Source: an uncultured bacterium (GTDB lineage: Bacteria; Hinthialibacterota; Hinthialibacteria; Hinthialibacterales; JAKPRU01). From it: a DNA stretch of 64,000 bases. Position numbers and translations under genes: made by a program. Within the stretch, counting starts at the first letter, position 1, and each line of letters starts with the position of its first letter. Under the pieces are notes generated by a model. It was not told the origin of the DNA, ran no database searches, and saw only the letters and a list, made by a program, of their open reading frames with translations. Location: positions 6,300 through 70,299 of the forward strand of contig CAZTDD010000015.1 of the NCBI GenBank assembly GCA_964612675.1. Direction: 5' to 3'. This document shows, one piece after another, positions 2,340-55,170 of this stretch.

Positions 2340-2865
2340 AAGCAGCTGCGATTTACAGAGCGCATCAGGGAGGGCGAAGCTCCAGGGAGGGCGAAGCTCC
2401 TGGGAGGGCGAAGCTCCTGCTGAGCCGATTCGTTCTTCTTTCGGCTCGTCGGGAGACTCGCCCTCCCAATAGACTGACGGTGCAGCAAAAAGTCGGGAGA
2501 GCTCTTCTCCCTCTCCCGGGGGGAGAGGGCCGGGGTGAGGGATCTTTGCATTTTGCGTCACCCCTCCCTCTGTACCTAATGAACTCCTGTCATCACAAAA
2601 ACCTTTTGCCTCTGCTTGATTTGCTGTCTCTGGCGAATACACAAGCGAATAATAATAGCCGAATCCAGTGCAATGATCGCCCCTCACCCTAACCCTCTCC
2701 CGGGGGGAGAGGGAACTTCCGATGCCAACTTCCGACTTTTTGCGACGGCATCCCTCTTGGGGGAGAAGACGCTGCAGACACGCTCGTCTTGAGCGACCGG
2801 GCACATGGGTAACACTTTTCCTCCCCCGAAGATCGGGGGAGGTGTAGGAGGGGGTTGAAATCTCT
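2340..2865. repeat. mosaic cluster of short palindromic interspersed repeats (REP/BIME-like)
   Basis: Contains a 17-bp tandem repeat x3 (2368-2418, gggagggcgaagctccW) that pairs with an inverted copy at 2442-2467 to form a roughly 26-bp stem hairpin. The palindrome ccctctccc-ggg-gggagaggg is at 2509-2529, with a near copy at 2694-2713. The palindrome cctcccccgaagatcgggggagg at 2819-2841 is followed by the gtaggagggggttgaaatc module. All have copies elsewhere in the window. Confidence 0.8.
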
Positions 2866-4619: not shown

Positions 4620-4805
4620 CCGAAATAAGGACTTGAACTTCTTGGATTTTCGGCGTAAAAAAAACACAGATGCCAGTGGCAGGTTGGGCATCTGTCGGCT
4701 GAACTCGGCACATGGGGCATTCCCGGAGCCGAATTCAGAGCAATCCAGACCTTGCAGGTCGCGGTAACGAGGTCGATACAAAGGTCTCAATCAAAGGAGA
4801 GAACA

Positions 4806-5378
4806 ATGCGAGCCGGCTTTACTCTTATTGAACTGCTCATTGTAGTGGCGATCATCGGTATTCTGGCTGCTATCGCTGTTCCCAATTTTCTGAACGCGCA
4901 AATGCGGGCGAAAATCGCCAATGCGGAGTCCGATATGCGTTCGTTGGATACTGCGCTTGAAATGTACCGGATGGACAACAATCACTACCCCCTCTGGCGG
5001 GATTCCAGCGGGACAAACGTTAACCCGGTCAATCGCCGTTTGATCCCTCTGACCTCACCGATCTCGTACATCAGCGCTGTTCCTCAGGATCCCTTTGTCT
5101 ACGGCCCGCCGGGCGCACGTCTCGACAACGCACAACACGAAGCGTATGTGACTTACGACTACATTGAATCTCAGTCCCAGTTCAACCACGGAAACATCCC
5201 CCTCGGTCCCGCGTGGCGCTGTTCGGAATGGCGTCTCAACGGCTACGGTCCCGATGGGACCAACGATGTGGCGGCGCTGACCTATGCTGCGTCCAACGGA
5301 TTGAGGAGCCGGGGCGACCTGATCCGCCTTGGTCCCAAAACCAGTTACGCATGTGATGACTCATGGGTCGGATTGTAG
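4806..5378 (+). CDS. prepilin-type N-terminal cleavage/methylation domain protein (DUF1559 family)
   Basis: MRAGFTLIELLIVVAIIGILAAIAVPNFLNAQMRAK. AAAGGAG RBS 6 nt upstream. The six-frame ORF starts at 4752, but the ATG at 4806 fits the RBS. Confidence 0.8.
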   Translation: MRAGFTLIELLIVVAIIGILAAIAVPNFLNAQMRAKIANAESDMRSLDTALEMYRMDNNHYPLWRDSSGTNVNPVNRRLIPLTSPISYISAVPQDPFVYGPPGARLDNAQHEAYVTYDYIESQSQFNHGNIPLGPAWRCSEWRLNGYGPDGTNDVAALTYAASNGLRSRGDLIRLGPKTSYACDDSWVGL

Positions 5379-6407: not shown

Positions 6408-6752
6408 CGCCAACATATGCCTCAACGCATACCTTTCATTTTAGAAGGTGCCAACCCAGTTCCGCTTGTTGACCCGATGCACATTACTTTACGGGTAGCT
6501 CCGATTGCACAAGCGGTTAATAGAAACCTGCCGATTTCGGAAAGCTCTCTACTTGGAAGAATCCCGGCATTTCGGGGGATTCTTCAAAACGCCTGCACAA
6601 ACAGGTATATCTTGTCGGCTAAGTCAATCGGAGTGGCGAAGCCACAAGAGGCTAGCCAAATACGTTTCGCTTTGGTGCTCACAAGCTTCTCTCCTACCCC
6701 GTTGACTTTTTACCGCCGCGTCAAGCCTGATGGGACCGCAAAAAGTCGCGGG

Positions 6753-6937
6753 GGGTAAGAATAGAGAAGTATTCAACCCCCTCTTTATCTCCCCCAAACT
6801 TTGGGGGAGAAAACGCAGACGGACTTGGCTTGATACAGAGCTTGTTTCTTTTTCCTCCCCCGAAGATCCGGGGAGGAATCTCATGGCTTGCCGAAGGCAA
6901 ACATGAGAGCCGTAGAGGAGGTGGTTGAGATCTGTTT
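6753..6937. repeat. REP/BIME-like mosaic repeat cluster
   Basis: Modules, each with copies elsewhere: ggggggtaagaatagagaagtattcaaccccctc (reverse of the unit at 19941-19975), palindrome tctcccccaaactttgggggaga (6781-6803), palindrome cctcccccgaagatccggggagg (6854-6876), and the nested palindrome aatctcatggcttgccgaaggcaaacatgagagccgtagaggaggtggttgagatc (6877-6933). Confidence 0.8.
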
Positions 6938-7078
6938 TGCCTACGCCTTGTCGCTCCGCCTGGTGGCCGATTGAGTTGCTGTACCGCCGCCAATTCCGCA
7001 GACTCTGTGAAAGATCTTCTGCCTTCTCTTTGTGATTGGTATGATTGAATTGTCTCATATTCTTCTGTCTATACCGAT

Positions 7079-19668: not shown

Positions 19669-19705
19669 CGATTTCCTTGCTGCGTCGTAGGTGGTTTTAC
19701 GTGTA

Positions 19706-19762
19706 AAAGCTAACGGTAGGGCCTTCGAGAACTTGTCAATCCGTGATCATAAGATCCCAACG
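19706..19762. repeat. direct repeat copy 1 flanking the REP cluster
   Basis: aaagctaacggtagggccttcgagaacttg...tcataagatcccaacg recurs at 19988-20080 with point differences and an internal insertion. Confidence 0.7.
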
Positions 19763-19814
19763 ATGTGTGCCAGTCCCAAGCTTGATGCAATCGCAAAAAG
19801 TCTGGAATACGAAT

Positions 19815-19978
19815 TTCAACCCCCTCCTAACCTCCCCCGATCTTCGGGGGAGGAAAAGGAAACGAGCGTGTCTCCAGCGTATTCTCCCCCAAGAGGGACA
19901 CGCTTGCGTGGCCGCTGTAAGGGGAGATTCAGAGGGGGTTGAATATTTCTCTATTCTTACCCCTCGCGACTTTTTGCG
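19815..19978. repeat. REP/BIME-like mosaic repeat cluster
   Basis: caaccccctcc, then palindrome cctcccccgatcttcgggggagg (19830-19852), then module cgagcgtgtctccagcgtattctcccccaagagggacacgcttgcgtggccgctgtaaggggagattcagagggggttgaatatttctctattcttacccctcgcg. The last module has copies at 25138-25205 and 29895-29962 and a reverse copy at 6755-6790. Confidence 0.8.
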
Positions 19979-19987
19979 GCGGCGTCA

Positions 19988-20080
19988 AAAGCTAACGGTA
20001 AGGCTTTCGAAAACTTGAGTTTATCCAGGTGATCGCAATTTGCGATCACCTTGTCAGTTTTTCATCATAAGATCCCAACG
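19988..20080. repeat. direct repeat copy 2 with embedded 23-bp palindrome
   Basis: Second copy of the 19706-19762 unit. It contains the perfect palindrome ggtgatcgcaa-t-ttgcgatcacc at 20028-20050. Confidence 0.7.
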
Positions 20081-25137: not shown

Positions 25138-25205
25138 ACCTTCTCCCCCAAGAGGGACACGCTTGCGTGGCCGCAGTAAGGGGAGATACAGAGGGGGTTG
25201 AATTA
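25138..25205. repeat. REP-like interspersed repeat unit
   Basis: accttctcccccaagagggacacgcttgcgtggccgcagtaaggggagatacagagggggttgaatt is a near-identical copy of the units at 19879-19947 and 29895-29962. Confidence 0.8.
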
Positions 25206-25434: not shown

Positions 25435-26805
25435 ATGCGCGTAGCGGTGGGGATTTTCGTGGCAGTTTTCGCGATTACAGGTTCGGTTTCGGGACAGGAT
25501 ATGGAGGGCCTCGTAGCCTACTACAAGTTCGACGGCGACGGGACGGACAGCAGCGGTAATGGACGGGATGGAACAGTTCACGGGGCCGTTACGTCTGACG
25601 GGATACTTGGCGGATGTTACGAATTTGATGGGGTCGATGACTACATTCAGCTGCGTGTGCCGTTTGCGGGAAACCAACCAACGTTCACGGTCGAGCTATG
25701 GCTTCAACCCGATACTCAGGAACATTCGGATACGTATCCTTTCGCTGTCGTCAACGAAGGCATTTATTCAACCGGTATTCACACCAACAACGGCCGCATC
25801 AAGTATTACTTTTCCACTCCGGAAAAAGACCAAGTCGCCTTAGCGATGCCGCGATCTTTTGAGACGGGTCGATGGTATCATGTCGCAATTGTCGCCAACG
25901 GGCACGCGGTCAAGGCCTACGCCGACGGCATTGACATTGGAACAACCGAGCTAGGGGAAACAACGTTCAACTGGACAGAACCGTCTGATGCTTTCGTCAT
26001 CATCGGAACCGCATTTTCCCGGAAAACGGGGGAAAGCGTGCCGAGCCATTGCTACAAAGGCAAGATCGATGAGCTGAAGATATGGGACTGTGCCAGATCT
26101 CAAGATCAGATCCAGGAGTCCATATACGAAAGCATGGGTCTCGCAACGTACTACAAGTTCGATGGCGATGCGACGGACAGCAGCGGCAATGGACGGGATG
26201 GGACAGTCTACGGAGCCGCCGTTACATCCGAGGGGGTACTCGGGGCATGTTGTGAATTCGATGGAATCGATGATTATGTAAAACTGCCGGTACCATTCCA
26301 GGGAGACCACCCGACGTTCACGGTCGAAATGTGGCTTCAGCCGGATACCCAGGGTTATTCGGACACGTATCCTTTCTCTGTCGCTAACGGGGGCATATAT
26401 TCGACCGGAATCCACACCAACGATGGCGAGATCAAGTATTACTTTTCCATTCCGGGAAAGGATCAAGTCGGCTTAGCGATGCCAGGATCTTTTCAACCGG
26501 GTCAATGGTATCACGTCGCAATTGTGGTTGACGGTCACGCGGTCACCGCTTATGCGGATGGTGTTGAGGTCGCAACAACCGACTTGGGGGAAATTACCTT
26601 CAACTGGACAGAACCATCTGATGCTTTCGTCATCCTCGGAACTGCCTTTTCCTGGAGGACAGGAGCAAGTGTGCCGAGCCATTCTTATAAGGGCAAGATC
26701 GACGAGCTCAGAATATACGATCACGCACGGACGCAGACCCAGATTCACAAGTCTATAGACGAAGTTACGAATCCCAGTGCGGTAGAAGAATTTACCCAAT
26801 ACTAA
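25435..26805 (+). CDS. secreted protein with two tandem LamG / concanavalin-A-like lectin domains (Laminin_G_3-like)
   Basis: Signal MRVAVGIFVAVFAITGSVSG. Two roughly 210-aa repeats each carry YYKFDGDxTDSSGNGRDGTV, the CYEFDGVDDYIQL motif, WYHVAIV and YKGKIDEL, which are hallmarks of Laminin_G_3 domains. The repeats are about 80 percent identical at the nucleotide level by eye. Confidence 0.7.
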   Translation: MRVAVGIFVAVFAITGSVSGQDMEGLVAYYKFDGDGTDSSGNGRDGTVHGAVTSDGILGGCYEFDGVDDYIQLRVPFAGNQPTFTVELWLQPDTQEHSDTYPFAVVNEGIYSTGIHTNNGRIKYYFSTPEKDQVALAMPRSFETGRWYHVAIVANGHAVKAYADGIDIGTTELGETTFNWTEPSDAFVIIGTAFSRKTGESVPSHCYKGKIDELKIWDCARSQDQIQESIYESMGLATYYKFDGDATDSSGNGRDGTVYGAAVTSEGVLGACCEFDGIDDYVKLPVPFQGDHPTFTVEMWLQPDTQGYSDTYPFSVANGGIYSTGIHTNDGEIKYYFSIPGKDQVGLAMPGSFQPGQWYHVAIVVDGHAVTAYADGVEVATTDLGEITFNWTEPSDAFVILGTAFSWRTGASVPSHSYKGKIDELRIYDHARTQTQIHKSIDEVTNPSAVEEFTQY

Positions 26806-26839
26806 GAGGTCAAATCAATGAATTTGGAGGATTAAACTC

Positions 26840-27250
26840 ATGCCACCGCTTCAAGTCAAGATGGACGAAGATGAATTGTGGGAAGATTACCACAAGCACA
26901 AAGAATACTTGGAAAAGTGTAAGATACCGAGTGGTATAAGGGTGACCTTTTGGCGACACCCTGAATATCCGCCACAAGTGGAGCCTGGAGACACGGCATA
27001 TATAAGATGGGCTCGGAGGGAGAAATATCAGAAACAATTAAAGGGAAAAAGAATCGTCGCAGAAGTACTTGACGTAGTCAAAACACTCAAAGGCGATGAA
27101 AAAGACGGCCTGCACACAATTGAAGATTGGCTTCGAAGCCAAGGGATTACCAATCCGATAAGATTCCATGACCCCCCGCCTGCGTTGGAACGATGTGCAT
27201 CGGTCATTGTTTTGTATTGCCTGAGGTTGGAGCCAGCCTCTGAGAAATGA
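26840..27250 (+). CDS. hypothetical small protein (136 aa) in an AT-richer islet
   Basis: Strong RBS GGAGGattaaactcATG. No recognisable motif (MPPLQVKMDEDELWEDYHKHKEYLEKCK...). GC is visibly lower than in the flanks. Confidence 0.4.
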   Translation: MPPLQVKMDEDELWEDYHKHKEYLEKCKIPSGIRVTFWRHPEYPPQVEPGDTAYIRWARREKYQKQLKGKRIVAEVLDVVKTLKGDEKDGLHTIEDWLRSQGITNPIRFHDPPPALERCASVIVLYCLRLEPASEK

Positions 27251-27261
27251 CCCCTGCACGG

Positions 27262-27697
27262 CTCGGCGGGAGCCTCGCCCTCCCGGGGCCGGCGGGCAAC
27301 GCCCCTGGAGAGAAATTGTCAGAATCAGGATTGTCAGGATAGAAGGATGGACAGGATAAAAACCCTTTGGAATCCATCCTGAGTATCCTTTCATCCTGGA
27401 CATCCAGATTCAGACAATTCTTCGCCCCGTTGGGGCTTGGGCGATGTTGGCGTGTCGGTTTCCAGGGGCGGGTGCCCCTGGCTGTAATACATGACCCCTT
27501 CGGGGTCAACTGCACCGGCGCTTTTCTGCGTTCCCCAAAAACTGGTTTTAGTTTTTTTCAAAGGGCCTGCTTTCTGACCATGATATGTTCAACAGGCCAA
27601 CTCGACGGCTTGTCTCGGGAGGGCGAACCTCCTGGTGAGCCGTCTTCCTTTTTCCATCGAAACGGCTCGGCGGGAGCCTCGCCCTCCCCGAGAAGGC
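27262..27697. repeat. hairpin-repeat-bounded noncoding segment (gggagggcga family)
   Basis: gctcggcgggagcctcgccctccc at 27264-27287. The region 27612-27692 forms a long imperfect hairpin (gggagggcgaacctcctggtgagccg ... cggctcggcgggagcctcgccctccc). It is the same family as 2368-2467. Internal inverted repeats occur at 27338-27410. Confidence 0.65.
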
Positions 27698-27751
27698 GTG
27701 GTATGAATGGTGCATCCCCTTAAGCAAGGGCGGAAACAAAGGGAGATCATC

Positions 27752-29659: not shown

Positions 29660-29669
29660 ATACGAAATA

Positions 29670-29965
29670 ATCAACCCCCTCCTCTACGGCTCTCATGTTT
29701 GCCTTCGGCAAGCCATGAGATTCCTCCCCCGATCTTCCTGAGTTTTACCCAGAAGTCATCGCGATCTGTGACCCTAATAAACTCAACCCCACCCGAACCC
29801 TCCCCAATCTTGGGGAGGGAAACTGAAACGGACGCCGATTCAAAGCAGCACAGGTTTCTTTCCCTTCCTCCCCCGGTCTCGGGGGAGGAAAAAAACGAGC
29901 GTGTCGGCAGCGTTTTCTCCCCCAAAGGGACCGCGCTAGCGTGGCTGCAGTAAGGGGAGATTCAG
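29670..29965. repeat. REP/BIME-like mosaic repeat cluster
   Basis: Contains an inverted copy of the ...catgagagccgtagaggagggggttgat module (29671-29745), the palindrome ccctccccaatcttggggaggg (29802-29823), the palindrome cctcccccggtctcgggggagg (29866-29887), and the gggaccgcgctagcgtggctgcagtaaggggagattcagagggggtcga module. Confidence 0.8.
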
Positions 29966-30011
29966 AGGGGGTCGACTGGATCGTAGCAGTTTTACGAGAG
30001 GTATGCTCACT

Positions 30012-40416: not shown

Positions 40417-40556
40417 CGGGCACAGTTCGTGTCGGTCTAGCGTTCGCTTTTGTATGAGCCGTTTTCGCGGTTATTGCTGCTGTTCATGGCGCCCCCCGAT
40501 CGTTGGAGCCGATGATGTGAGGAAGAAACCGTGAGTGTTCGCAGCCGGTCACTTTA

Positions 40557-40640
40557 TCGTCATCGCGAGCGAAGCGTGGCGATCTCGCCGTTGTGTGTTG
40601 CGACAATGAGATTGCTTCGCTTCGCTCGCAATGACGATAG
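40557..40640. repeat. long inverted repeat (about 28-bp arms) of the gtcatYgcgagcgaagcRtggcgatctc family
   Basis: gtcatcgcgagcgaagcgtggcgatctc (40558-40585) and its inverted partner gagattgcttcgcttcgctcgcaatgac (40601-40628). A single related unit gtcatggcgagcgaagcatggccatctc lies at 53490-53517. Confidence 0.7.
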
Positions 40641-45225: not shown

Positions 45226-46647
45226 TCACCGCAACAGCTGCCGTTTCGCCTTGTCCATTATCTCGTCGAGGGCTTCATCCGACGGGGCTTCAACATAGAC
45301 CCGGAACAAGGGTTCCGTTCCCGACGGGCGCAGCAAAAGCCAGCTTCCGTCCTCCATAAAGTACTTGAAGCCGTCGATGGTAAGTGTACGTTCGACCTTG
45401 CGCCCGGCGATGCTCTTGACCTGCTTCGAGTTCAGCTTGTCGAGAACGGTTTCCATCTTCTCCGGCGTCAACCGGGAATCCTCCCGCCGGAACGCGTGAT
45501 ACCCGATCTTCTTGTACAATTCTTCGCGGATCTGCGACAGCGGTTTCTTGCGCATCGCCATCATCTGGAGAATCAGCAGCGCAGCAAGCGATCCATCACG
45601 CTCGGGGATATGCCCTTTCATCGAGTATCCCCCGCTCTCTTCGCCGCCAATCAACACCTCGCGCTCCAACATCAGATCGCAAACATACTTGAAGCCCACT
45701 GCAACTTCTTGCAGCTCCAGACCGTACACCTCGCAAAGCCTGTCGAGCATGCTTGTGCTCGATACTGTTTTGACTACTTCACCGGACATTTTCAAGTCTT
45801 CATAAACATGCATCAATAACAGAGCGAAGACATCCTGAGTCGTGAGCCAATTTCCTTTCTCATCTACGACCCCGATCCGGTCCGCGTCTCCATCCAAAGC
45901 GAACCCAACATCCGCTTTGGATTTTTTCACAGCGTCACAGAGGGGTATTAGGTTCTTTCCGATTGGCTCCGGGTGCAGTCCTCCGAAGGATGGATTGTTC
46001 TCCCCATGAATCTCTTCGACGTCTAATCCCCAGGAAGCCAGATGGGGCGCAAGGAGGCCGACACCTGAACCATACATCGCATCCACCACAACTCGAGGCT
46101 TGAGACGCTTAATCCGCGATACCTTCACAAAACCCGTAATTGCCTTCAGATAGCGTTCTTTTGGATCGAAAAACTGAACGAGTTTCCCCTTTTGGGCTTC
46201 GTCGATGGGCATCCAGCCGGGGAGTTTTCCTTTTTCACGAAGCTCGTTCGCGCGTTTTTCAACCTTACGTGTAATATCCGGGCTGATAGGTCCACCGAAA
46301 GGCCCTTTGAGCTTGATGCCGTTATACTCTGCAGGGTTGTGACTGGCTGTCACCATAAATCCACCGACTGTTTTTCGTGTGTAGGTTTCGAGAGAAAGGG
46401 AAGGCGTTCCCGAGACATCGTCGGACACGATAGTCCGCAATCCTTTCGCTGCTGCGACGCCGGCGATTTCATGGGCATACTCGCGGGAAAGAAAACGGCG
46501 GTCATAACCGATCGTCGCAGGTTTGCCCTTTCCAGAGCGTTTGAAATACTCCGTAGCAGCAGCAGCCACATAGCGCACATTATCAAAGGTAAACTGGCGG
46601 CTGATGACAGCGCGCCATCCATCGGTACCGAAGACGATGTTGTCCAT
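45226..46647 (-). CDS. phosphoglucomutase/phosphomannomutase family protein
   Basis: FGTDGWRAVI N-terminus. The active-site Ser loop TASHNPAEYNGIKL is present. 473 aa. Confidence 0.9.
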   Translation of the reverse strand: MDNIVFGTDGWRAVISRQFTFDNVRYVAAAATEYFKRSGKGKPATIGYDRRFLSREYAHEIAGVAAAKGLRTIVSDDVSGTPSLSLETYTRKTVGGFMVTASHNPAEYNGIKLKGPFGGPISPDITRKVEKRANELREKGKLPGWMPIDEAQKGKLVQFFDPKERYLKAITGFVKVSRIKRLKPRVVVDAMYGSGVGLLAPHLASWGLDVEEIHGENNPSFGGLHPEPIGKNLIPLCDAVKKSKADVGFALDGDADRIGVVDEKGNWLTTQDVFALLLMHVYEDLKMSGEVVKTVSSTSMLDRLCEVYGLELQEVAVGFKYVCDLMLEREVLIGGEESGGYSMKGHIPERDGSLAALLILQMMAMRKKPLSQIREELYKKIGYHAFRREDSRLTPEKMETVLDKLNSKQVKSIAGRKVERTLTIDGFKYFMEDGSWLLLRPSGTEPLFRVYVEAPSDEALDEIMDKAKRQLLR

Positions 46648-46775
46648 CCTATTCCTCCGTGGGTCAAACGCTTTATGATAAGCCTCTTAAGGGAAACGAT
46701 AGAGTAAGTCTCAAGGGAACTGAAGTCCGACGCGAGTCGGTCGGCCCGCTTAAGCTGAGTCGAAAGGCGTTTGCC

Positions 46776-47795
46776 ATGTGTACGGACGATCTATCCTACG
46801 TATTGGAAATGTGGCCGATCTCCGACGATACGGACGATCACATCTCCTCCCATCACTTGCTTCTTAGAGACCATGTTCGGAACCAGGCGTTCCAGCGAGC
46901 AATTCACCGAACGGTGAATCCGGGGGATATCGTCGTTGAGATCGGCGGAGGAACAGGAATTCTCTCGGCATTTGCGCTCCAGGCCGGAGCGAAACATGTC
47001 TACCTGATCGAATCGGAGGATGTGATCTCGTGTGCGCAAAAGATTCTGCGCAGAGGCGGCTGGAAGAAACGCATCACCTGCATTCGAAGCCGGGCGGAAG
47101 CTGTTCGGTTCACCGGACGTCGCGCAGACGTAATCATCGCCGAGCTGATTGGCTCCTTCGGCGTGGACGAGAACATTCTCGAGGTTGTGCCGCTTGTACG
47201 AAATCGCGCTTTGAAGAGAAAAGGCACAGTGATCCCAAACCGTCTACAGCTCTTCATCGCCCCAATCTCCTACCCACCATTGGAGCAGGAACTGGAGCTA
47301 TATCGGAGTGTCCGGCACGGGGTGGATTTGTCGCCTTTAGCGACTCTGGCAGACAATAATCTGTATATGGTCGATCTTCGCAACGCGCAGTTTTTAGCCG
47401 CCCCCGTTCAGCTTATTGAATTCGATCTTCTTACATGGTCCGACAATACGTTTGAGCGTAGCGTCCGTTTCACTATCGACAGACCAGGTACTCTGATCGG
47501 TTTTGCCGGTTGGTTTGAGATGTCTCTTTCCGAAGGAATCTCACTCTCGAATGAGCCCACAGGCAACCAGACCCATTGGGATCAAGTCATCTTTCCCATC
47601 GGAGACCCCGCGCGTCTGAAGAAAAACGACCGCGTCTCGTTTCATTTGCATTACGAAACTCCAAAAGGAGGCGACGAGTGGAAATGGTCCGGGACTATTC
47701 AAAGTCGTGAAGGCAAACGCCGTTTCTGTTTGTCAAGCGAGAACCGCTTCCCATTTACGAGAATCAGCTCGCGAAAGACCTTGCGAATGGGATAG
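46776..47795 (+). CDS. protein arginine N-methyltransferase-like (PRMT-type class I SAM methyltransferase)
   Basis: Motif I VVEIGGGTGILSAFA, double-E-like loop ADVIIAELIGSFGVDE and THW loop THWDQVIFPI. The six-frame ORF starts at 46659, but the ATG at 46776 is preferred. Confidence 0.65.
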   Translation: MCTDDLSYVLEMWPISDDTDDHISSHHLLLRDHVRNQAFQRAIHRTVNPGDIVVEIGGGTGILSAFALQAGAKHVYLIESEDVISCAQKILRRGGWKKRITCIRSRAEAVRFTGRRADVIIAELIGSFGVDENILEVVPLVRNRALKRKGTVIPNRLQLFIAPISYPPLEQELELYRSVRHGVDLSPLATLADNNLYMVDLRNAQFLAAPVQLIEFDLLTWSDNTFERSVRFTIDRPGTLIGFAGWFEMSLSEGISLSNEPTGNQTHWDQVIFPIGDPARLKKNDRVSFHLHYETPKGGDEWKWSGTIQSREGKRRFCLSSENRFPFTRISSRKTLRMG

Positions 47796-47831
47796 ATCGT
47801 CTTTCGAAGATGCGCCTTTCAACGGAAGACC

Positions 47832-49985
47832 TCACCCAACACGCGACGATAGAAACAGATTCGCTCCGTGATAGACCAGAAATGAAGTCACCCAGGCAAG
47901 GACCAACGCATACCCAACGGCAAAGACAGTCCACTTCCACGATCCCGTTTCGCGACGCATAACTGAGATGGTGCCGAAACACGGCACATAGACGAGAACG
48001 ATTACCATCAGCGCCAAAGCGGAAGCGGGCGTCAGTCCCGACTCCCGCAGTGCGGTCCGTAGACCTTCGTCACGTTCGTCGACACCTTCAGTGGCCTGGT
48101 AGAGAACTCCGAGCGTGCTTACAACCGTCTCTTTCGCCGCCACGCCGGTGAGTAATGCGAGCCCGGATTTCCAGTCAAGCCCCATGGGCCGAATAACGGG
48201 GGCTATCAGCTTCCCGACACGGCCGGCGAAGGAATGCTCTAAACGGGTTTCTTCATAGAGCGTCCTGAGTCGATTGAGTTCGGCGCGTTCTATGGGTGTC
48301 ACCTCTCCGGAGCCCCGCGCTTCGATCTCCGCCTTCAATTCCTCGGAACCGGGAAACTGACGAGGAAACGCACAAAGCCCCCAAATCAGGATCGAGGCGA
48401 CTAGAATGACACCACCCACCTTGCGAATGAATATGTACGCGCGGTCCCACATGTGGATCAATACGCTGCGAAGCAAAGGAATTCGATACGGGGGAAGTTC
48501 CATCACAAACGGCATCGCTTCACCGCGAAACAGAGTACGACGGAATACTTGACCGACGATCATCGCAAGGAAAACACCCAGAGCGTAAATTCCAAGAATG
48601 ACCCAGGTCGCATGAGATTTGAAGAAAGTGCCTGCGAGGAGAATGTAGACCGGCAAACGGGCGCTGCAACTCATAAGTGGATTGATGAGGATCGTCAACA
48701 GCCGGTCGGAGCGGTTCTCCAACATCCGCGTTGCCATGATGGCAGGCGCATTGCAGCCGAATCCCATCACCATCGGAATGAACGATTTTCCGTGTAAGCC
48801 GAGCGCATGCATCACCCGGTCCATAATGAATGCCGCGCGGGCCATGTATCCCGTGTCTTCGAGCACGGAAATAAAGAAAAAAAGGATCAGGATATTCGGC
48901 AGAAATACGATCACACTCCCCACGCCGTTGATCGCCCCATCCACAACGAATCCCTTGACGATCCCGTCCGGCAGCAGACTGGAAACTGACGCAGCGACAA
49001 ACCCCACTACGGTCTCGATCCACTCCATGGGTATGGCCCCAAGGGTAAATGTTGCCTTAAACATCACATAGAGAAAAAAAACAAAAATTGGGATTCCCAG
49101 CCACCGGTGAGTAACGACGGCGTCGATGGAGTCGGATCGCCTCATCTTCTCTTCCATCGAGAGGCTCACCGTTTCCCGCACAGCGCCTCGAACAAAACCG
49201 TAGCGGCGCTCCGAAAAAAGACTCGTCAGATCGTCCTGGTGACGCGACTCGAGTCGTTGGACCGAGTGGTCGCGCACCCGAAGAATGTCTTCGCCATGCG
49301 GAGTCGGCGCAACGACTTCTTCGATGGTTTTGTCTCGTTCCAGCAAACGAATCGCGAGCCATCTGCGCCCATAACGGGAGATCAGGTCTTTGGCGGAGGC
49401 CAAAGCTTCCTCAACATTCAGAATCTCCTGTTCAAGATCTTCGCCGTAGTTAACCGTGACTTGATGTTGAATCGGGCTTGTTCCCGCCGCCACTTCCAAT
49501 GACATAGTCAGTAGTTCACGTGTTCCAAAACCCCGATTGCCTATAGTCGGAACGATTGGAACTCCCAGCAATTGTCCGAGTTTCTCATGATCGATCGCCA
49601 CACCCTGATTTCGCGCCTCATCGCTCATGTTCAGGGCGACCACAGTATTCACACCGAGTTCAATAAGTTGGGATGTGAGGTACAGATTTCGTTCGAGGTT
49701 GGTCGCATCCACAACATTGATAACAACATCAGGCCGCTGATCGATCAGATACGACTGGACGATCATCTCTTCGAGTGAATGGGCGGTAAGACTGTATGTA
49801 CCCGGCAAATCCACAAGCAGCAATTCGAACTCATCCAGACGGGCGGTACCTTCTTTGATCGCAACAGTCACTCCCGGGTAATTCCCGACTCGCTGCCGAC
49901 TGCCGGTCAGCATATTGAACAGACTCGTCTTACCGGAGTTCGGATTTCCTACCAACGCACAAGAAAGCTGACGTGGCTTGTTCAT
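47832..49985 (-). CDS. feoB: ferrous iron transport protein B
   Basis: N-terminal G-protein domain (LVGNPNSGKTSLFNMLTG, DLPGTYSL) followed by a polytopic membrane domain. Start chosen at MNKPRQL. Confidence 0.95.
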   Translation of the reverse strand: MNKPRQLSCALVGNPNSGKTSLFNMLTGSRQRVGNYPGVTVAIKEGTARLDEFELLLVDLPGTYSLTAHSLEEMIVQSYLIDQRPDVVINVVDATNLERNLYLTSQLIELGVNTVVALNMSDEARNQGVAIDHEKLGQLLGVPIVPTIGNRGFGTRELLTMSLEVAAGTSPIQHQVTVNYGEDLEQEILNVEEALASAKDLISRYGRRWLAIRLLERDKTIEEVVAPTPHGEDILRVRDHSVQRLESRHQDDLTSLFSERRYGFVRGAVRETVSLSMEEKMRRSDSIDAVVTHRWLGIPIFVFFLYVMFKATFTLGAIPMEWIETVVGFVAASVSSLLPDGIVKGFVVDGAINGVGSVIVFLPNILILFFFISVLEDTGYMARAAFIMDRVMHALGLHGKSFIPMVMGFGCNAPAIMATRMLENRSDRLLTILINPLMSCSARLPVYILLAGTFFKSHATWVILGIYALGVFLAMIVGQVFRRTLFRGEAMPFVMELPPYRIPLLRSVLIHMWDRAYIFIRKVGGVILVASILIWGLCAFPRQFPGSEELKAEIEARGSGEVTPIERAELNRLRTLYEETRLEHSFAGRVGKLIAPVIRPMGLDWKSGLALLTGVAAKETVVSTLGVLYQATEGVDERDEGLRTALRESGLTPASALALMVIVLVYVPCFGTISVMRRETGSWKWTVFAVGYALVLAWVTSFLVYHGANLFLSSRVG

Positions 49986-50096
49986 GCCGCGTTGGCGTAT
50001 TGATGTCTCCGCAGATAGATAATCCATAAATCGTTACCGTTCGATTCTCGAAGTCTCCGTACCGCTCGAGAGGTAACAAAGATCGTTTTGCAGGTG

Positions 50097-50837
50097 TCAG
50101 GACGTCGGTACCTCTCCATCCAGAAGAACTTCAACCGCGGAGGCCTCGGCCTTGCGTAGTGAAAGGTTGTACCCTCGGATATGTATCTCGATGGGGTCGC
50201 CCAACGGAGCTTCCCGCATAAATCGTACTCGCTCTCCCCGGATCACTCCCATCTCCATCAGACGTCTCCGGATCGGCCCGGTCTCACGAATACGTCGAAC
50301 GATGCCTTCCTGGCCCGGCTGCATGTCGGAAAGAGCGAGAATCTCTCCTTCCACTTTGGCAGATGAAGGCCGATACAGCGTCTCCGTCAGCTGACGTTCA
50401 TGGTCCGCGTACTGCTCAAAAAGCTGAATCGATTTGGCACGCTGTTCCGGATCGGAATTCACGTACCCCATGAACGTGATAAGCCGCGCCATTGTGTTCC
50501 GACTCAGGTTATGTTCGATGGCACATGCGTCCTTTTCGGCCGTTTCCGGGTCAACCCGCAACACATCGGTCAAAAAACCCGAAATGATCCGATGGCGATT
50601 GTGAACCTCCTGGGCAATACGAGACCCGTCTTGCGAAAGCTGCACATCCTCATAGCGCTCATGCTTGACCAGGCCACGCTCATTGAGGAGACGCAGCGTC
50701 TCTGAGACCGTAGGGGCTTTTACACCGATATCGCTCGCTATATCGCGAACGCGGACAACACGTTTCTGCATCTGGAGACGGTAAATCGACTCCAGATAAT
50801 CCTCCATCGCACGTGATATTTCCGGAAGTTTGCTCAT
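50097..50837 (-). CDS. DtxR/MntR-family metal-dependent regulator fused to a C-terminal FeoA domain
   Basis: DtxR HTH and metal-binding core (LEDYLESIYRLQ..., RDIASDIGVKAPTVSETLRLL..., ISGFLTDVL). C-terminal FeoA/SH3-like domain (LSDMQPGQEGIVRRI...GERVRFMREAPLGDPIEI). It is immediately upstream of feoB on the same strand. The start is ambiguous between 50837 and 50864. Confidence 0.8.
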   Translation of the reverse strand: MSKLPEISRAMEDYLESIYRLQMQKRVVRVRDIASDIGVKAPTVSETLRLLNERGLVKHERYEDVQLSQDGSRIAQEVHNRHRIISGFLTDVLRVDPETAEKDACAIEHNLSRNTMARLITFMGYVNSDPEQRAKSIQLFEQYADHERQLTETLYRPSSAKVEGEILALSDMQPGQEGIVRRIRETGPIRRRLMEMGVIRGERVRFMREAPLGDPIEIHIRGYNLSLRKAEASAVEVLLDGEVPTS

Positions 50838-50866
50838 ATAACCAATGTTAGAGCCTCCCAACATTT

Positions 50867-50880
50867 TTGGCAAGTGCCAA
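50867..50880. promoter_or_regulatory. 14-bp palindrome TTGGCAagTGCCAA upstream of the DtxR-FeoA gene (candidate operator)
   Basis: Perfect 6-2-6 inverted repeat read directly. It lies about 30 bp upstream of the preferred start codon, in the region divergent from the GT2 gene. Confidence 0.4.
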
Positions 50881-51002
50881 CCCTATCTTCAGCGAATATA
50901 ATTCGTTACCGCGAGGCTTTTCTAACGGATAGGCTTTGTGTTTATCGTTCGACGGCTTACACTGGTGTGGTCTGATCTCATTTCGAATGAGGGGTTTACT
51001 CG

Positions 51003-51863
51003 ATGCGCCTGTGGAAAAGAAAGTCGGAGCCGGAAGAGGTCCTGGAAGACGACGAGGACCTGGAATTGCCGACGGATGAGGAGCTGGAAGACCGGCCGGG
51101 GATCGATGAATATGAAGAACCCGAAGAACCACTTCCCGAGATTCAGACGCCGTGGCGGCGGGTGGCGGTCTTGATCCCGTGTTATAACACCGGACAGGTC
51201 ATCTTGGATACTGTAACAGATGCCACACAGTATGCGGGCTTGATTCTCTGTGTCAACGACGGCTCGACAGACGATACACTCTCATGGATTCGAAAATCCG
51301 GTGCTGAATTCATCTCCCTTCCCCGCAACAAAGGGAAAGGACACGCGCTAACCGCAGGATTCAATTATCTGTGGCAACGGACCGAATGGGATGTGCTGAT
51401 CACGATGGATGGTGACGGTCAGCACGAAGCCATCGATATTCCCTACCTGATTGAAGCCTACGAGGAGACGGGAGCGGATATTGTGGTGGGGGCGAGGGAT
51501 TTCCATGCGCCCGAAGTCCCATGGCTCAGGCGCTGGTCGAACCGTCGAAGCTCCAAATGGATCGCCAAAAAGTCGGGACTGCCGCTCAGCGATTTTCAAT
51601 GCGGGTTCCGGCTCTTCACGCGGCAAGCGATCAGGCACCTACTGACCCGTTTGACCGGTGGACTGTTCGAGATGGAAACGACCATGCTTATCCTGGCGGA
51701 CCGTCTGGGACTGCAGATTACTGAGACCCCTATCACAACGATATATACGAAGACTTCGGCCGGCCGATCCTCCTGGCGGGTCTTCCGCGACAGTCGCCGA
51801 ATCTACCGCGCACTGAAGAAGACGCTCAAAGAGACAGAGCATCTCGTCGCTGAACAGGAATAG
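51003..51863 (+). CDS. glycosyltransferase family 2 (GT-A) with acidic N-terminal extension
   Basis: VAVLIPCYN, LILCVNDGSTDDT and MDGDGQHE (DxD region) match GT2 dolichyl-phosphate-sugar-synthase-like enzymes. The N-terminal 50 aa are highly acidic (EEVLEDDEDLELPTDEELED). Confidence 0.8.
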   Translation: MRLWKRKSEPEEVLEDDEDLELPTDEELEDRPGIDEYEEPEEPLPEIQTPWRRVAVLIPCYNTGQVILDTVTDATQYAGLILCVNDGSTDDTLSWIRKSGAEFISLPRNKGKGHALTAGFNYLWQRTEWDVLITMDGDGQHEAIDIPYLIEAYEETGADIVVGARDFHAPEVPWLRRWSNRRSSKWIAKKSGLPLSDFQCGFRLFTRQAIRHLLTRLTGGLFEMETTMLILADRLGLQITETPITTIYTKTSAGRSSWRVFRDSRRIYRALKKTLKETEHLVAEQE

Positions 51864-51929
51864 AACGACCGGAACGAGGCGGGAATACTGCCGCCGGTTC
51901 TGTGGACACTCGTCTCACGGAGATCGTAT

Positions 51930-52391
51930 ATGCAGAAGATCGCAATTCTCGTCGCTATTATTCTACTTCACGCAGTCGGCTTCTACGTCCTGTACACTTA
52001 CGTACTCATCAGCGACGAGACACGGATCAGAAGGGTCATCGAAAAGGGGCGCAAAGCGATAGAAGAGGAATCGCTGCTGACTGCGGCGACTCTGATCGCG
52101 GACAATTACCGGGATGAATACGGTCAGGACAGGGGAACTGTTTTGGGCGGTTTGCGAAGTCTTTTTCAGTCGACGGAAAACCTGCAGATCGATATCCACT
52201 CGACAGAAATAACCGTCGACAATGAGGACGCCGAGGCGGTGGTGACGTTCTCCTTGTCCGGAGAGCACGGGGGTCACTCATTTCGCGACATTGCACCGGA
52301 CCGGAAAACAGGCGGCAGCGTCTATTTCGCAAAGGGGGACGGCGGCTGGAAAGTCGCCGGCACCTCCCGCTTTCGTCCGCTCCCGGATTGA
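51930..52391 (+). CDS. hypothetical N-terminally anchored protein (NTF2-like?)
   Basis: N-terminal helix MQKIAILVAIILLHAVGFYVLYTYVLI followed by a 120-aa soluble domain. No motif recognised. Confidence 0.4.
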   Translation: MQKIAILVAIILLHAVGFYVLYTYVLISDETRIRRVIEKGRKAIEEESLLTAATLIADNYRDEYGQDRGTVLGGLRSLFQSTENLQIDIHSTEITVDNEDAEAVVTFSLSGEHGGHSFRDIAPDRKTGGSVYFAKGDGGWKVAGTSRFRPLPD

Positions 52392-52397
52392 AGCAAG

Positions 52398-52931
52398 TCA
52401 GTCAAGATTCACTTTTCTGAGTTCCCCGGTCTTCGTATTGATAATCATTCCGTGCAGACGCAAATCGTTGGAGATCAAAGGACACGCACGTATCGCTCGA
52501 ATTGTGCTCCGAACATTCTCCTCGATGTCGTTCAGCGCCCCAAACCATTCCGAGACTTCTTTGTCCCCTGTCGCTTCATTTGGATCTACGCCCTGTTGTT
52601 TCAGTTGGTGTACCGTCTCACTCTCATCGAATTTCGACATACCGCAATCGGTGTGACCCAGAACAATAAAGTCTGCTAATGCCTGGTGAAGCACAGACAT
52701 GGAAATCGACCTGAGAACATCGTTGTTCTCAGGCAGAACCTGGTTCCCCGCGTTGCGCAAGACGACCACTTCCCCCGGCGCGAAGCCCATCGCCGGTTCC
52801 ACCACGCCGGTCAATCTCGGATCCATACAGTACAGAAGCCCAACCCTTTTGAAGTGATCGAAAGTCGGGATCTGTCCTTTCTTCTCGTTCACGTATTTTT
52901 GATTTCGTGCCAATATGTCGTCCAACAGCAT
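52398..52931 (-). CDS. beta-class carbonic anhydrase
   Basis: CMDPR (CxDxR) and LGHTDCGM (HxxC) zinc-ligand motifs. 177 aa. Confidence 0.9.
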   Translation of the reverse strand: MLLDDILARNQKYVNEKKGQIPTFDHFKRVGLLYCMDPRLTGVVEPAMGFAPGEVVVLRNAGNQVLPENNDVLRSISMSVLHQALADFIVLGHTDCGMSKFDESETVHQLKQQGVDPNEATGDKEVSEWFGALNDIEENVRSTIRAIRACPLISNDLRLHGMIINTKTGELRKVNLD

Positions 52932-53200
52932 ATCGTTCTCCTCACCACCGGTTTCTATGGTTGAGACCTCGCAGAAGTCGCTTTACCGGAGTCTCTTCGC
53001 CAACACTCCGAATCCACAACCGGTCGAGTATCGTAATGGAGAATGAGAGAAGATTGAACCTGAATCCACCTATACCGCCCGGATCTACTCTCCGGGCGAT
53101 TTTCTGAAACCCGCACCGCCCGGATTGACTCGGCGAACAAATCCAGGACCCTACCGAATGATGCCGTCGCAAAAAGTCGATGAGAGTGGAAAAACAGAAA

Positions 53201-53372
53201 TCCTCAACCCCCTCTTGAGCGACCCCAATCTTTGGGGGAGAAAAGAAGCCATGGTCCCGGTCACTCACAAACCAGCTGTGTTCGTTTCCTTTCCTCCCCC
53301 GAAGATCGGGGGAGGAGTCTCATGGCTTGCCGAAGGCAAACATGAGAGCCGTAAAGGAGGGGGTTGAAATCC
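53201..53372. repeat. REP/BIME-like mosaic repeat cluster
   Basis: ccccaatctttgggggaga palindrome (53226-53247), cctcccccgaagatcgggggagg (53293-53315) and the nested palindrome ...tcatggcttgccgaaggcaaacatgagagccgtaaaggagggggttgaaatc (53316-53372). It has the same modules and order as 6854-6933. Confidence 0.8.
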
Positions 53373-53583
53373 GTATCCCAAACTTTTTGCGACAGCGTCA
53401 CCGAATGGAGGGGGTCCGGCGTTTCTCCTTCGAATCCCGGACCGACACTGCCGCTGATTTGAGAAAGGAACCGCGATCTCCGTTGCCGTCATGGCGAGCG
53501 AAGCATGGCCATCTCGTTTTTCCGGTTCAATGCGGAAATTCCCACGTCGTTGCGCTCCTCGGAATGACGGATTCGCTCGCGTT

Positions 53584-54624
53584 TTATTTCGAGGCGAACC
53601 GTTCGAACAGGCCGAGTAGATCCTCCCCGATGGTCGGACGGTATTCTTCATACACCGGCTGAGCAGCTTCCCGCAGTAGACTGCGCATCCCCGGCGAGAG
53701 CTCTGTGATCACCATCCCCCGTTGCCCGAGAACGCGGCGATGAGTTTCCTCCCGCTCGATAACGTGCTGTCTCTGTTCTTTCGCCGCCTCTTGAGCGGAC
53801 TCCCGAAGAATCCTCTGTTGCTCCTCCGTGAGACCGTCCCATAGATCCGCATTCAAACATAAGACAATCGGGTCGAAGGAATAGTCCCAAATCGTAAGAT
53901 ATTTCTGTACCTCATACAGCCCAGCAGAGTGAATCACGTGGAGGGGGTTCTCCTGTCCATCCATGGTGCCTTCACGCAGGGCCTGAATCAGTTCACCAAA
54001 GTTCATCGAGCTGGGATCGGCATTCCAAAGCCGGAACAGCGTGATGTACATCTTAATGGAGGGAACACGGATCTTGAGGTCGCTGAGATCGTCAAGACTC
54101 GCGATTGGTCTCTTCGAATTCGTGATTTGACGGAACCCGTTAAAACCGTAGGCCAATCCGACAAGTCTCTTCTCGCGCAGCAGTTCGAGCATTCTCTCGC
54201 CCGGCTCGTTGACGCAAGCCTGCTCCGCCTCCGCATAATCGTCAAACATCCACGGCAGCGACCAAACCGTCCAGCGTGGATCGACCACCGACAGCAAAAT
54301 CGAGGATTCCCACGAGCCGCCAAGACTCCCGCCCTGGACCATATCCAACTCGGTCTGCTGGTTATTGCCGGAGAGAGAAGCGTTGGTGTACAGATGGATC
54401 AGGATGTCTCCATCGCTCCGCTCTTCAACCAATTCCTTCCACCGGACGGCACCGTAATGCCATTCCGAGGTCTCGCTGAGAATGTGGCTGAAACGGATCG
54501 TTAGGGGACCTTCTTCCCGATCGGAACATCCTGTGAGTGCATTGAGAAGCAGAAACAGTCCAACAGCGATTCCGATTTGCACCGGTTCGAATCTATCCGC
54601 TATCCGCCTTTCGACCTGTTTCAT
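53584..54624 (-). CDS. TRAP-transporter substrate-binding protein (DctP family) lipoprotein, apparently orphan
   Basis: Lipoprotein signal LLLNALTGCS. DctP-like core with the DGQENPL motif. No DctQ/DctM genes are visible in the window. Confidence 0.8.
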   Translation of the reverse strand: MKQVERRIADRFEPVQIGIAVGLFLLLNALTGCSDREEGPLTIRFSHILSETSEWHYGAVRWKELVEERSDGDILIHLYTNASLSGNNQQTELDMVQGGSLGGSWESSILLSVVDPRWTVWSLPWMFDDYAEAEQACVNEPGERMLELLREKRLVGLAYGFNGFRQITNSKRPIASLDDLSDLKIRVPSIKMYITLFRLWNADPSSMNFGELIQALREGTMDGQENPLHVIHSAGLYEVQKYLTIWDYSFDPIVLCLNADLWDGLTEEQQRILRESAQEAAKEQRQHVIEREETHRRVLGQRGMVITELSPGMRSLLREAAQPVYEEYRPTIGEDLLGLFERFASK

Positions 54625-54654
54625 GAACCTTCCCGCTCCATATATTCAAATGGT

Positions 54655-54927
54655 CTATTTCAGCTTAAAGACTTCCTCGAAAGCGCCTCCACCTCCCAGG
54701 CTCTGCATCAGAAGCAAGGCTGCGACGGTCAAAACAACCAAAATCACAAAGGCAGCAGCCGACCAAATCATATTCCGCTTCCTTTGAGACTTTGCGCGGT
54801 TACCGAGCTGCATGATCCTTGCTTGCATCGCATCTTCGTAACTCGTATCCACTTGAATGGTAGGATCGGCGCTAGACGCCGGCTTTCCCTCCACGGAAGA
54901 TGTTGTGGGTGATTCTTGTTCTGCCAT
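54655..54927 (-). CDS. small single-pass membrane protein (hypothetical)
   Basis: 90 aa with one TM helix (IWSAAAFVILVVLTVAALLLM) and a hydrophilic N-terminus. It lies 30 nt upstream of the TRAP binding-protein gene on the same strand. Confidence 0.35.
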   Translation of the reverse strand: MAEQESPTTSSVEGKPASSADPTIQVDTSYEDAMQARIMQLGNRAKSQRKRNMIWSAAAFVILVVLTVAALLLMQSLGGGGAFEEVFKLK

Positions 54928-55170
54928 GATTCTGTTTTCCTTCCCTGGAAATCGGGACAGCGTTTTCCAATTCTCTGGTCATCGCGCTGTCCATGGCTCA
55001 CCCACCTTCGTCTTTCCACTGAGAACCTGCCCAAGATACATCCCGGCCGCTATGACCGGGTTCCGGATAAAACATACAGATAGATTAACCACGATACCGC
55101 CCCAGACCGAGTGGAGTCCTACTCTTTCGTACGACACCCCCGTATCAAGAGTGACTATCTCTCGCATGCC

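Follow-up and report, generated by a model that had tools for sequence, protein, structure and literature searches.

Background

[quoted passage not shown] Further described repeats are the BOX elements of Streptococcus pneumoniae, with the structure boxA-boxB(n)-boxC (PMC3049150, cited in PMC10969869), and the repetitive extragenic palindromes (REPs), which are defined by a GTAG or CGTC tag that stays unpaired beside one end of the palindrome and are known also in the Planctomycetes-Verrucomicrobia-Chlamydiae (PVC) group and in other deep phyla (PMC3733652). Bacterial interspersed mosaic elements (BIMEs) consist of regularly spaced REPs in alternating orientation (PMC2817692). Here we analyse clusters of hairpin-forming repeats in a stretch of 64,000 nt (hereafter, the window: contig CAZTDD010000015.1 of assembly GCA_964612675.1, positions 6,300 to 70,299 of the forward strand) from an uncultured, wastewater-type bacterium of the Hinthialibacterota. 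Our reading, to which we assign a probability of about 0.7, is that one MITE-like family of non-autonomous transposons makes up these clusters, in the form of copies and of fragments that have decayed.

This reading is the best-supported one: the element has the features of a MITE, i.e. the size, the inverted ends, the direct repeats, the non-coding content, the intergenic dispersal and the stable folding. Like the described prokaryotic MITEs (Correia/NEMIS of Neisseria, ERIC, Nezha/Chunjie; PMC10969869), it is shorter than 500 bp, does not code for proteins, has inverted ends and flanking repeats, is dispersed between genes with predicted long stem-loop transcripts, and occurs also as truncated and nested copies. 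It differs from them in being unrelated in sequence and G+C-rich, in its unusually long inverted ends (~45-57 nt) and in its interior, where near-perfect C5/G5 hairpins are stacked and modules are inserted; the duplication is of 5 bp here, whereas it is TA in Correia. The Correia-type MITEs would be the closest analogues in mechanism. The pneumococcal BOX would be the closest one in architecture: it likewise pairs conserved terminal modules around a variable interior, clusters and inserts into other repeats. In our case, however, the hairpins occupy two fixed hot-spots instead of forming a boxB tandem, and both phylum and sequence differ. Selfish DNA of this kind is well known, but this family of it is so far undescribed.

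Gene calls in a poorly known lineage, and in related metagenome-assembled genomes from wastewater and digesters, would become cleaner with a model of the element; at least two spurious products have already been deposited as proteins (P0121 and P0122), and these repeats break metagenome assemblies. The family also gives a lineage without cultured members a well-delimited MITE that has inverted ends and a 5-bp duplication, and it predicts a partner transposase. One feature goes beyond the routine, that is an exact 23-nt hairpin common to genomes of 55% and 69% G+C.

Architecture and boundaries of the element

Three copies are complete, and they measure 205, 242 and 417 bp (E3, E6 and E1, respectively). 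They are bounded by an outer terminus T (TGAYGCCGYCGCAAAAAGTC, ~20 nt; TGA at the start and TCA at the end), whose right-hand partner T_R is its inverse. In every complete copy, 16-17 of the 20 positions agree between the two T ends, and the inverted similarity runs on from T through the spacers to the inner arms, so that the inverted ends include T, spacer and arm. Precisely, the order is T, a long spacer (~25 nt, on the left side), the inner arm I_L (TTCAACCCCCTC), hairpin c (TCTCCCCC-AAACTTT-GGGGGAGA) or an expanded c (the stem of c with a loop of ~30 nt), an optional module e, a variable spacer, hairpin a (CCTCCCCC-GAAGATC-GGGGGAGG, 23 nt), hairpin b as an optional insertion of 37 nt, the partner arm I_R (GAGGGGGTTGAA), a short spacer (~13 nt, on the right side) and T_R. 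The interior is non-coding, its hairpins have G5/C5 stems, and subfamilies are distinguished by c or expanded c and by the presence or absence of e and of b.

The three copies that keep both T ends are all flanked by 5-bp direct repeats, which abut the termini in two cases and are offset by 1 nt in the third. They are TAGAC for E1 (2470-2474 and 2892-2896) and CCGAA for E6 (53154-53158 and 53401-53405), both abutting, and AAGCT for E3 (19778-19782 and 19989-19993, one base, 19988, off the terminus). The chance of such a match per element, estimated from random pairs of window positions, was 0.0013 for abutting repeats and 0.0026 when an offset of 1 nt is allowed. In addition, a private variant, TGACGGT, is common to both outer T ends of E1, as would result from their being copied together as a unit.

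Ends of the form TG...CA with duplications of 3-5 bp are typical of IS3-like and Mu/Tn7-like enzymes, and TGA...TCA termini with a 5-bp duplication are the trace of DDE transposases of the IS3 family and of the Mu/Tn7/Tn5053 type. The element is probably moved in trans by a DDE transposase. An enzyme of this type, encoded elsewhere in the genome, would bind the T ends, and the element would be inserted via a 5-bp staggered cut; new insertions would persist mainly between genes, and copies would then decay, become truncated and nested, and recombine via their near-identical C5/G5 stems. Effects on the host, e.g. the folding of read-through transcripts, would be a by-product.

A first-pass annotation of the window, made by a model from the letters alone, had described the clusters as modules a, b, c and d arranged in varying order and orientation, with the organisation of E. 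coli BIMEs. All four modules are present where it placed them, and their abundance is far above chance: the 12-mer TTCAACCCCCTC occurs 8 times with at most one mismatch, against 0.39 expected from dinucleotide-preserving shuffles of the window. Module d, however, is no separate unit but c with the expanded loop. The order I-c-(e)-a-(b)-I is fixed, the polarity of the loop of a with respect to I is constant in the six window copies and in ~110 listed metagenome copies, and the seeming variation is due to inversion of whole elements and to truncation. The hairpins are internal modules in fixed order between terminal inverted repeats with 5-bp duplications, such as REPs and BIMEs lack, and an organisation as BIMEs is not supported. 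When the window cores are aligned with those from metagenomes, the fixed order is apparent together with two indel hot-spots, one between c and a and the other between a and I_R; the mosaic look of the clusters would come from subfamily differences at these hot-spots, from truncation and nesting, and from recombination between the interchangeable C5/G5 stems.

In the window, b and the expanded loop are each confined to their single context. Small dispersed repeats nested in cyanobacterial MITEs were reportedly described by Elhai and colleagues in Genome Research in 2008. They are said to be, as our hairpin modules are (b, and the loop expansion of c), precise insertions that preserve the fold; here, in contrast, b and the expanded loop behave as subfamily markers and not as independently mobile units.

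Copies in the window and their genomic setting

The repeat search of the window returned the modules both as families (D2-D8, D11-D13) and as inverted pairs (I2-I13). Module b is identical at 34 of 34 positions in its three window copies, and for stretches spanning a, b and I the complementarity or identity reaches 97% over 67 nt between unlinked sites, which lie 23-46 kb from each other. A sensitive self-search, with five elements as queries, found exactly six sites (2475-2891, 6704-6960, 19783-19987, 25140-25203, 29664-29976 and 53159-53400), against the "seven or more" counted before. All six are intergenic and flanked by Pfam-supported genes, which bears out the earlier description of a dispersed, intergenic, hairpin-forming family.

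E1 (2475-2891, + strand, 417 bp) is complete at both ends, with T_L at 2475-2494, T_R at 2872-2891 and an extra internal T at 2734-2753. It contains the 3′ half of the expanded c with e (2751-2790), hairpin a (2820-2842) and I_R (2848-2859), followed by the short spacer. A different palindrome, the inverted pair CCCTCTCCCGGGGGGAGAGGG(N)GGGGTGAGGG, is nested in it at 2509-2545 and 2680-2713. The first-pass annotation had given this cluster as 2340-2865; the modules are indeed there, but the cluster runs to 2896, and 2340-2470 holds an unrelated palindrome family.

Four nt before the left end of E2 lies the remnant right end of another copy (6688-6723, + strand), made of a long-type spacer and T, GACTTTTTACCGCCGCGTCA, which we recognised by direct comparison with 19944-19987. 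E2 itself (6728-6960, + strand) has a degenerate right terminus; its left part comprises T_L (6728-6747), the long spacer (6748-6771), I_L (6772-6783) and c (6788-6810), and its right part comprises a (6854-6876, 1 mismatch), b (6881-6914) and I_R (6918-6929, 2 mismatches).

E3 (19783-19987, - strand, 205 bp) is complete and inverted. Read on the + strand, it consists of T (19783-19802), the short spacer, I (19815-19826), a (19831-19853), e (19862-19880), the expanded c (19883-19927), I (19932-19943), the long spacer and T (19968-19987). A 31-nt direct repeat (90% identical; 19705-19735 and 19987-20017) brackets E3 and, to the left, a further 47 nt of unique sequence; its length far exceeds that of the 5-bp duplication, and none of the explanations considered accounts for it.

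Fragments were found at two sites, all on the - strand. E4 (25138-25203) holds only the expanded c (25142-25186) and I (25191-25202), with neither a nor T. E5a (29670-29737) has I (29670-29681), b (29685-29718) and a truncated a, and is the right end of a b-carrying copy. E5b (29782-29976) lacks T termini; it has on its left an I-like arm (29782-29793), the hairpin CCCTCCCCAATCTTGGGGAGGG (29798-29819) and the a-variant CCTCCCCCGGTCTCGGGGGAGG (29866-29887), and on its right e (29895-29913), the expanded c and I (29965-29976).

E6 (53159-53400, + strand, 242 bp) is complete, with T_L (53159-53178), the long spacer, I_L (53203-53214) and a decayed c (53219-53241) in its left part, and a (53293-53315), b (53320-53353), I_R (53357-53368), the short spacer and T_R (53381-53400) in its right part.

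The open reading frames (ORFs) that overlap the elements are all repeat-derived and have no Pfam match, and the same element DNA is translated in different frames in different copies. The earlier suspicion of spurious ORFs was thus justified, including the shared peptide EGVEYFSILTPRDFL, which is common to the ORFs 19743-20018(+) and 6721-6993(-); together with the surrounding palindrome families, the repeats yield spurious ORFs of up to 176 aa. The window genes are ordinary chromosomal ones (his genes, argH, ruvABC, feoAB, pgm, a sulfatase, glycosyltransferases and prepilin-like proteins), and the named homologues of their products are from "[bacterium]", Planctomycetota (59%), and Omnitrophica or Sumerlaeota (<50%).

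Distribution beyond the window

The repeat family is not confined to the window, the condition under which the first-pass annotation would have taken it for a local duplication. A protein search with the spurious E2 ORF returned the two deposited "proteins" P0121 and P0122, from other NCBI contigs (17.8 and 20.7 kb). Both read T-I-b-a in the same spurious frame, and P0122 has in addition the expanded c and I; it hence joins b with d, which no copy in the window does. In 185,579 GTDB species representatives the pattern T+I had no matches other than four in coding sequence, which are due to chance.

The exact 23-mer of hairpin a was present in at least 120 metagenome contigs from ~18 datasets, activated-sludge assemblies among them. 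The listed contigs do not resemble the window outside the repeats. In most of the listed loci hairpin a is followed by the I_R arm TYAGGTGGGGGTTGA, and it is often preceded by CAACCCCCTCTGTGTCTCCCCCAAACTTTGGGGGAGAGGTY, that is I_L and c, which gives a compact core of 76-78 nt. The window and the metagenome loci have modules a, c and I in common, as well as three unrelated families of palindromes; T, b, d and e are absent from the listed loci with module a and were observed in this genome only. The listed carriers fall into two genome types, 84 contigs of ~55% GC and 36 contigs of ~69% GC, the latter with a G/C-extended version of the same architecture; no ends or duplications could be fixed for these two variants, their flanks being mosaics of other palindromes.

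The 7-nt loop GAAGATC is conserved in two stem variants that are three complementary pairs apart (CCTCCCCC/GGGGGAGG and TTCCCCCC/GGGGGGAA), and a chimeric c/a hairpin, which would exemplify recombination between C5/G5 stems, occurs in one metagenome contig (L100). Two related contigs differ in the variant that they have at the end of an orthologous gene: TTCCCCCC-GATCTTC-GGGGGGAA in L079 (1760-1810) and CCTCCCCC-GATCTTC-GGGGGAGG in L038 (2272-2330).

No family members were found in viral contigs with the four patterns searched. Plasmids gave three weak 38-nt matches to the core, in Azospirillum, and none to E6. The first-pass annotation had known of no described family with these sequences, and the sources covered bore this out: neither at the gathering score nor at E<=1 did the window match an Rfam family, the sole matches of eight metagenome loci were to irrelevant miRNAs, and a search of the literature for sequence strings of the element returned only primers.

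Evidence on mobility

A contig of a relative (L126), whose ArgH is 85% identical in amino acids, is syntenic with window positions 46080-57926 and contains neither E6 nor any of the modules. Its intergenic region between the DctP and carbonic anhydrase genes is ~350 nt shorter than the E6-bearing counterpart in the window. The modules were likewise not found in the 18-kb contig of a second relative (L127). The same organism is present in an independent Logan assembly, which agrees with the window at 100% identity over 6.4 kb and breaks off 86 nt from E6. Among the listed matches on whole metagenome contigs, hairpin a lies within 100 nt of a contig end in 28 of 104 cases, against 8.2 expected, and this excess is the signature of a multi-copy repeat.

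No insertion presence/absence pairs were found among the at least 120 loci with module a, because each locus was selected for carrying it. No transposase recurs beside these loci either; the recurrent neighbours are prepilin-like proteins and GFO/IDH/MocA proteins. The only transposase seen near metagenome copies belongs to an IS4-family insertion sequence (IS) that is itself inserted into a copy (L086, 1263-2830, identical in L061). This IS encodes a 434-aa DDE_Tnp_1 protein, has the ends CAATGTCATTAAGTTAAG and sits at the junction between a and I_R with a 10-bp duplication, GGTCAGGTGG; the L086 locus also holds two tandem 143-nt copies of the local element.

Several points weigh against a MITE-like family. 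The duplication test rests on three complete copies, one of them with a 1-nt offset. The absence of E6 in the relative's contig could be a loss, and the divergence of the intergenic region hides the exact empty site. An autonomous partner with matching ends was not found in the 64-kb window. The elements are G+C-rich, unlike the A+T-rich typical prokaryotic MITEs (PMC10969869). Finally, the core I-c-a-I is common to many metagenome contigs with different outer flanks, and the history or the function of the inner core may be separate from that of the T ends.

Alternative explanations

This last point allows a different history, in which the inner core I-c-a-I (~78 nt in its compact form) would be a separate DNA or RNA module, either old or spreading horizontally and recognised by some protein, and transposons of different lineages would have captured it or would insert into it. 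Its basis is that in at least 120 contigs hairpin a is exact, with its GATC-containing loop, and is almost always followed by TYAGGWGGGGGTTGA, with unrelated outer flanks in the two GC types. The core is far more widely spread than the T ends, which could also reflect a common origin with horizontal spread, and recognition by a protein is the less likely of the two. We consider such a separate module unlikely.

If the hairpins were REPs or REPINs, they would be extragenic palindromes spread into BIME-like clusters by a REP-associated tyrosine transposase (RAYT, of the Y1/HUH type). The palindromes are in fact short (22-26 nt), G+C-rich, extragenic and clustered, each of them folds stably, and they produce spurious ORFs, as in the enterobacterial REPs and BIMEs and in the tagged REP superfamilies (PMC3733652, PMC2817692); as said above, REPs occur also in the PVC group and in other deep phyla. 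However, the flanks of a and c read TTTTC/GGTY (5′ side) and TYAGG/AATCTC/AAAAC (3′ side), and neither the window nor the 124 listed metagenome copies have a consistent GTAG or CGTC tag there. Instead of alternating REPs in arrays with defined linkers, we observed a fixed order of hairpins within a unit with inverted ends, and that unit is flanked by 5-bp target duplications. HUH-mediated movement of REPs and REPINs is not known to leave such duplications. No Y1_Tnp domain, and no transposase of any other kind, was found among the ~45 window ORFs scanned, and no RAYT gene among these ORFs or as a recurrent neighbour in the at least 120 listed loci. The hairpins are also not depleted from divergent intergenic regions. 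On these grounds we regard a REP-type origin as improbable.

A slightly poorer prospect is that the hairpin stacks are RNA elements selected by the host, as 3′-end stabilisers, terminators or processing sites. All six window sites are downstream of at least one gene and none is between divergent genes, and very stable folds are predicted, with -54 to -113 kcal/mol and z from -5.7 to -7.9 for the compact core and for whole elements folded as single strands, in agreement with the folding that the first-pass annotation expected. Yet both strands fold equally well, which is a necessary result of nested inverted repeats. Several tests argue against a selected RNA role of the elements. The terminator role proposed in the first-pass annotation found no support: hairpins a, b, c and d have no downstream T-run and were not called in the terminator scan, which within the elements called only a weak 6-bp stem inside module e, and a canonical terminator lies separately at 20027-20051, outside E3. 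Module a was outside ORFs in 71% of 127 listed occurrences, the non-ORF share of the sequence being 13%. The 90 intergenic metagenome copies among the listed matches show no bias of orientation with respect to the neighbouring ORFs (upstream ORF co-directional in 39 and opposite in 29) and no preference for convergent over divergent settings (13 and 12). Moreover, the stems decay without compensation. In an alignment of 12 metagenome cores and two window cores in the shared frame I-c-[spacer]-a-[b]-I, the 26 predicted pairs showed 0 compensatory changes, every deviation broke a pair, and the covariation term was unfavourable (+0.51). The close relative described above, finally, lacks the element at the same site.

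The repeats would very improbably be a multi-copy family of structured non-coding RNA genes (small or guide-like RNAs): to the closed multi-branch fold, and to the loop GAAGATC conserved in two stem variants, one has to oppose the absence of Rfam matches at E<=1, of any promoter or terminator associated with the elements, of strand bias and of covariation within a subfamily, and the common occurrence of truncated and nested copies. A relation to integron attC sites, suggested by I arms that resemble the cores RYYYAAC ... GTTRRRY around a variable structured centre (some copies read ATTCAAC ... GTTGAAT, at 6771-6777, 19937-19943 and 25196-25202), is effectively refuted, since most copies break the consensus (e.g. 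GTTGAAA, GTTGAGA, GTCGACT, CCTCAAC), the I stem is fully paired with no bubble or extrahelical bases, the window has no integrase or cassette array and its sites are 4-25 kb apart among housekeeping genes, and beyond the I arms there are T ends with duplications.

Two other candidates were dropped: G-quadruplex formation, because four G-runs are present only in the 69%-GC variant, and a CRISPR-like array, because no regular arrays exist.

Neighbouring repeats

Other palindrome families lie near the MITE-like element. One of them occupies 2368-2468 (with no strand assigned), inside the coordinates given in the first-pass annotation and outside E1; here a 17-nt unit repeated 3.1 times in tandem, GGGAGGGCGAAGCTCCT (2368-2419), is the 5′ arm of a hairpin, the other arm being at 2441-2468. 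The family, GGGAGGGCGAAGCTCC ... GGAGCCTCGCCCTCCC, recurs in the window at 27258-27285 and 27616-27688 and in 5-7 listed metagenome loci, and in metagenome loci it is often just upstream of hairpin a. The pair CCCTCTCCCGGGGGGAGAGGG and GGGGTGAGGG nested in E1 encloses ~135 nt of A+T-richer DNA. This module recurs in 13-18 listed metagenome loci and may represent another small element that was inserted into E1. A module GACCGGGCACATGGGTAACA is upstream of a in E1 (2797-2815) and beside interrupted copies in the distant metagenome contigs L050/L104 and L010. Palindromes of the CGTCATCGCGAGCGAAGCGTGGCGATCTC type form a facing pair at 40555-40639, with a single copy beside E6 (53487-53518), and adjoin the local version of the element in 4-10 listed metagenome loci.

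Two long repeats are outside the family. An inverted match of 141 nt (2135-2275 and 4799-4939) covers the 5′ ends of two divergent prepilin-like genes, and an internal duplication with a period of 630 nt (25506-25884 and 26136-26517) lies in the Laminin_G_3 gene 25435-26805. Within the intergenic region 26805-27707, an ATCCTG-rich repeat (...GGATGGACAGGAT... / ...ATCCTTTCATCCTGG...) is found at 27320-27416, and it has an 85%-identical counterpart of 41 nt in L126 (5823-5863).

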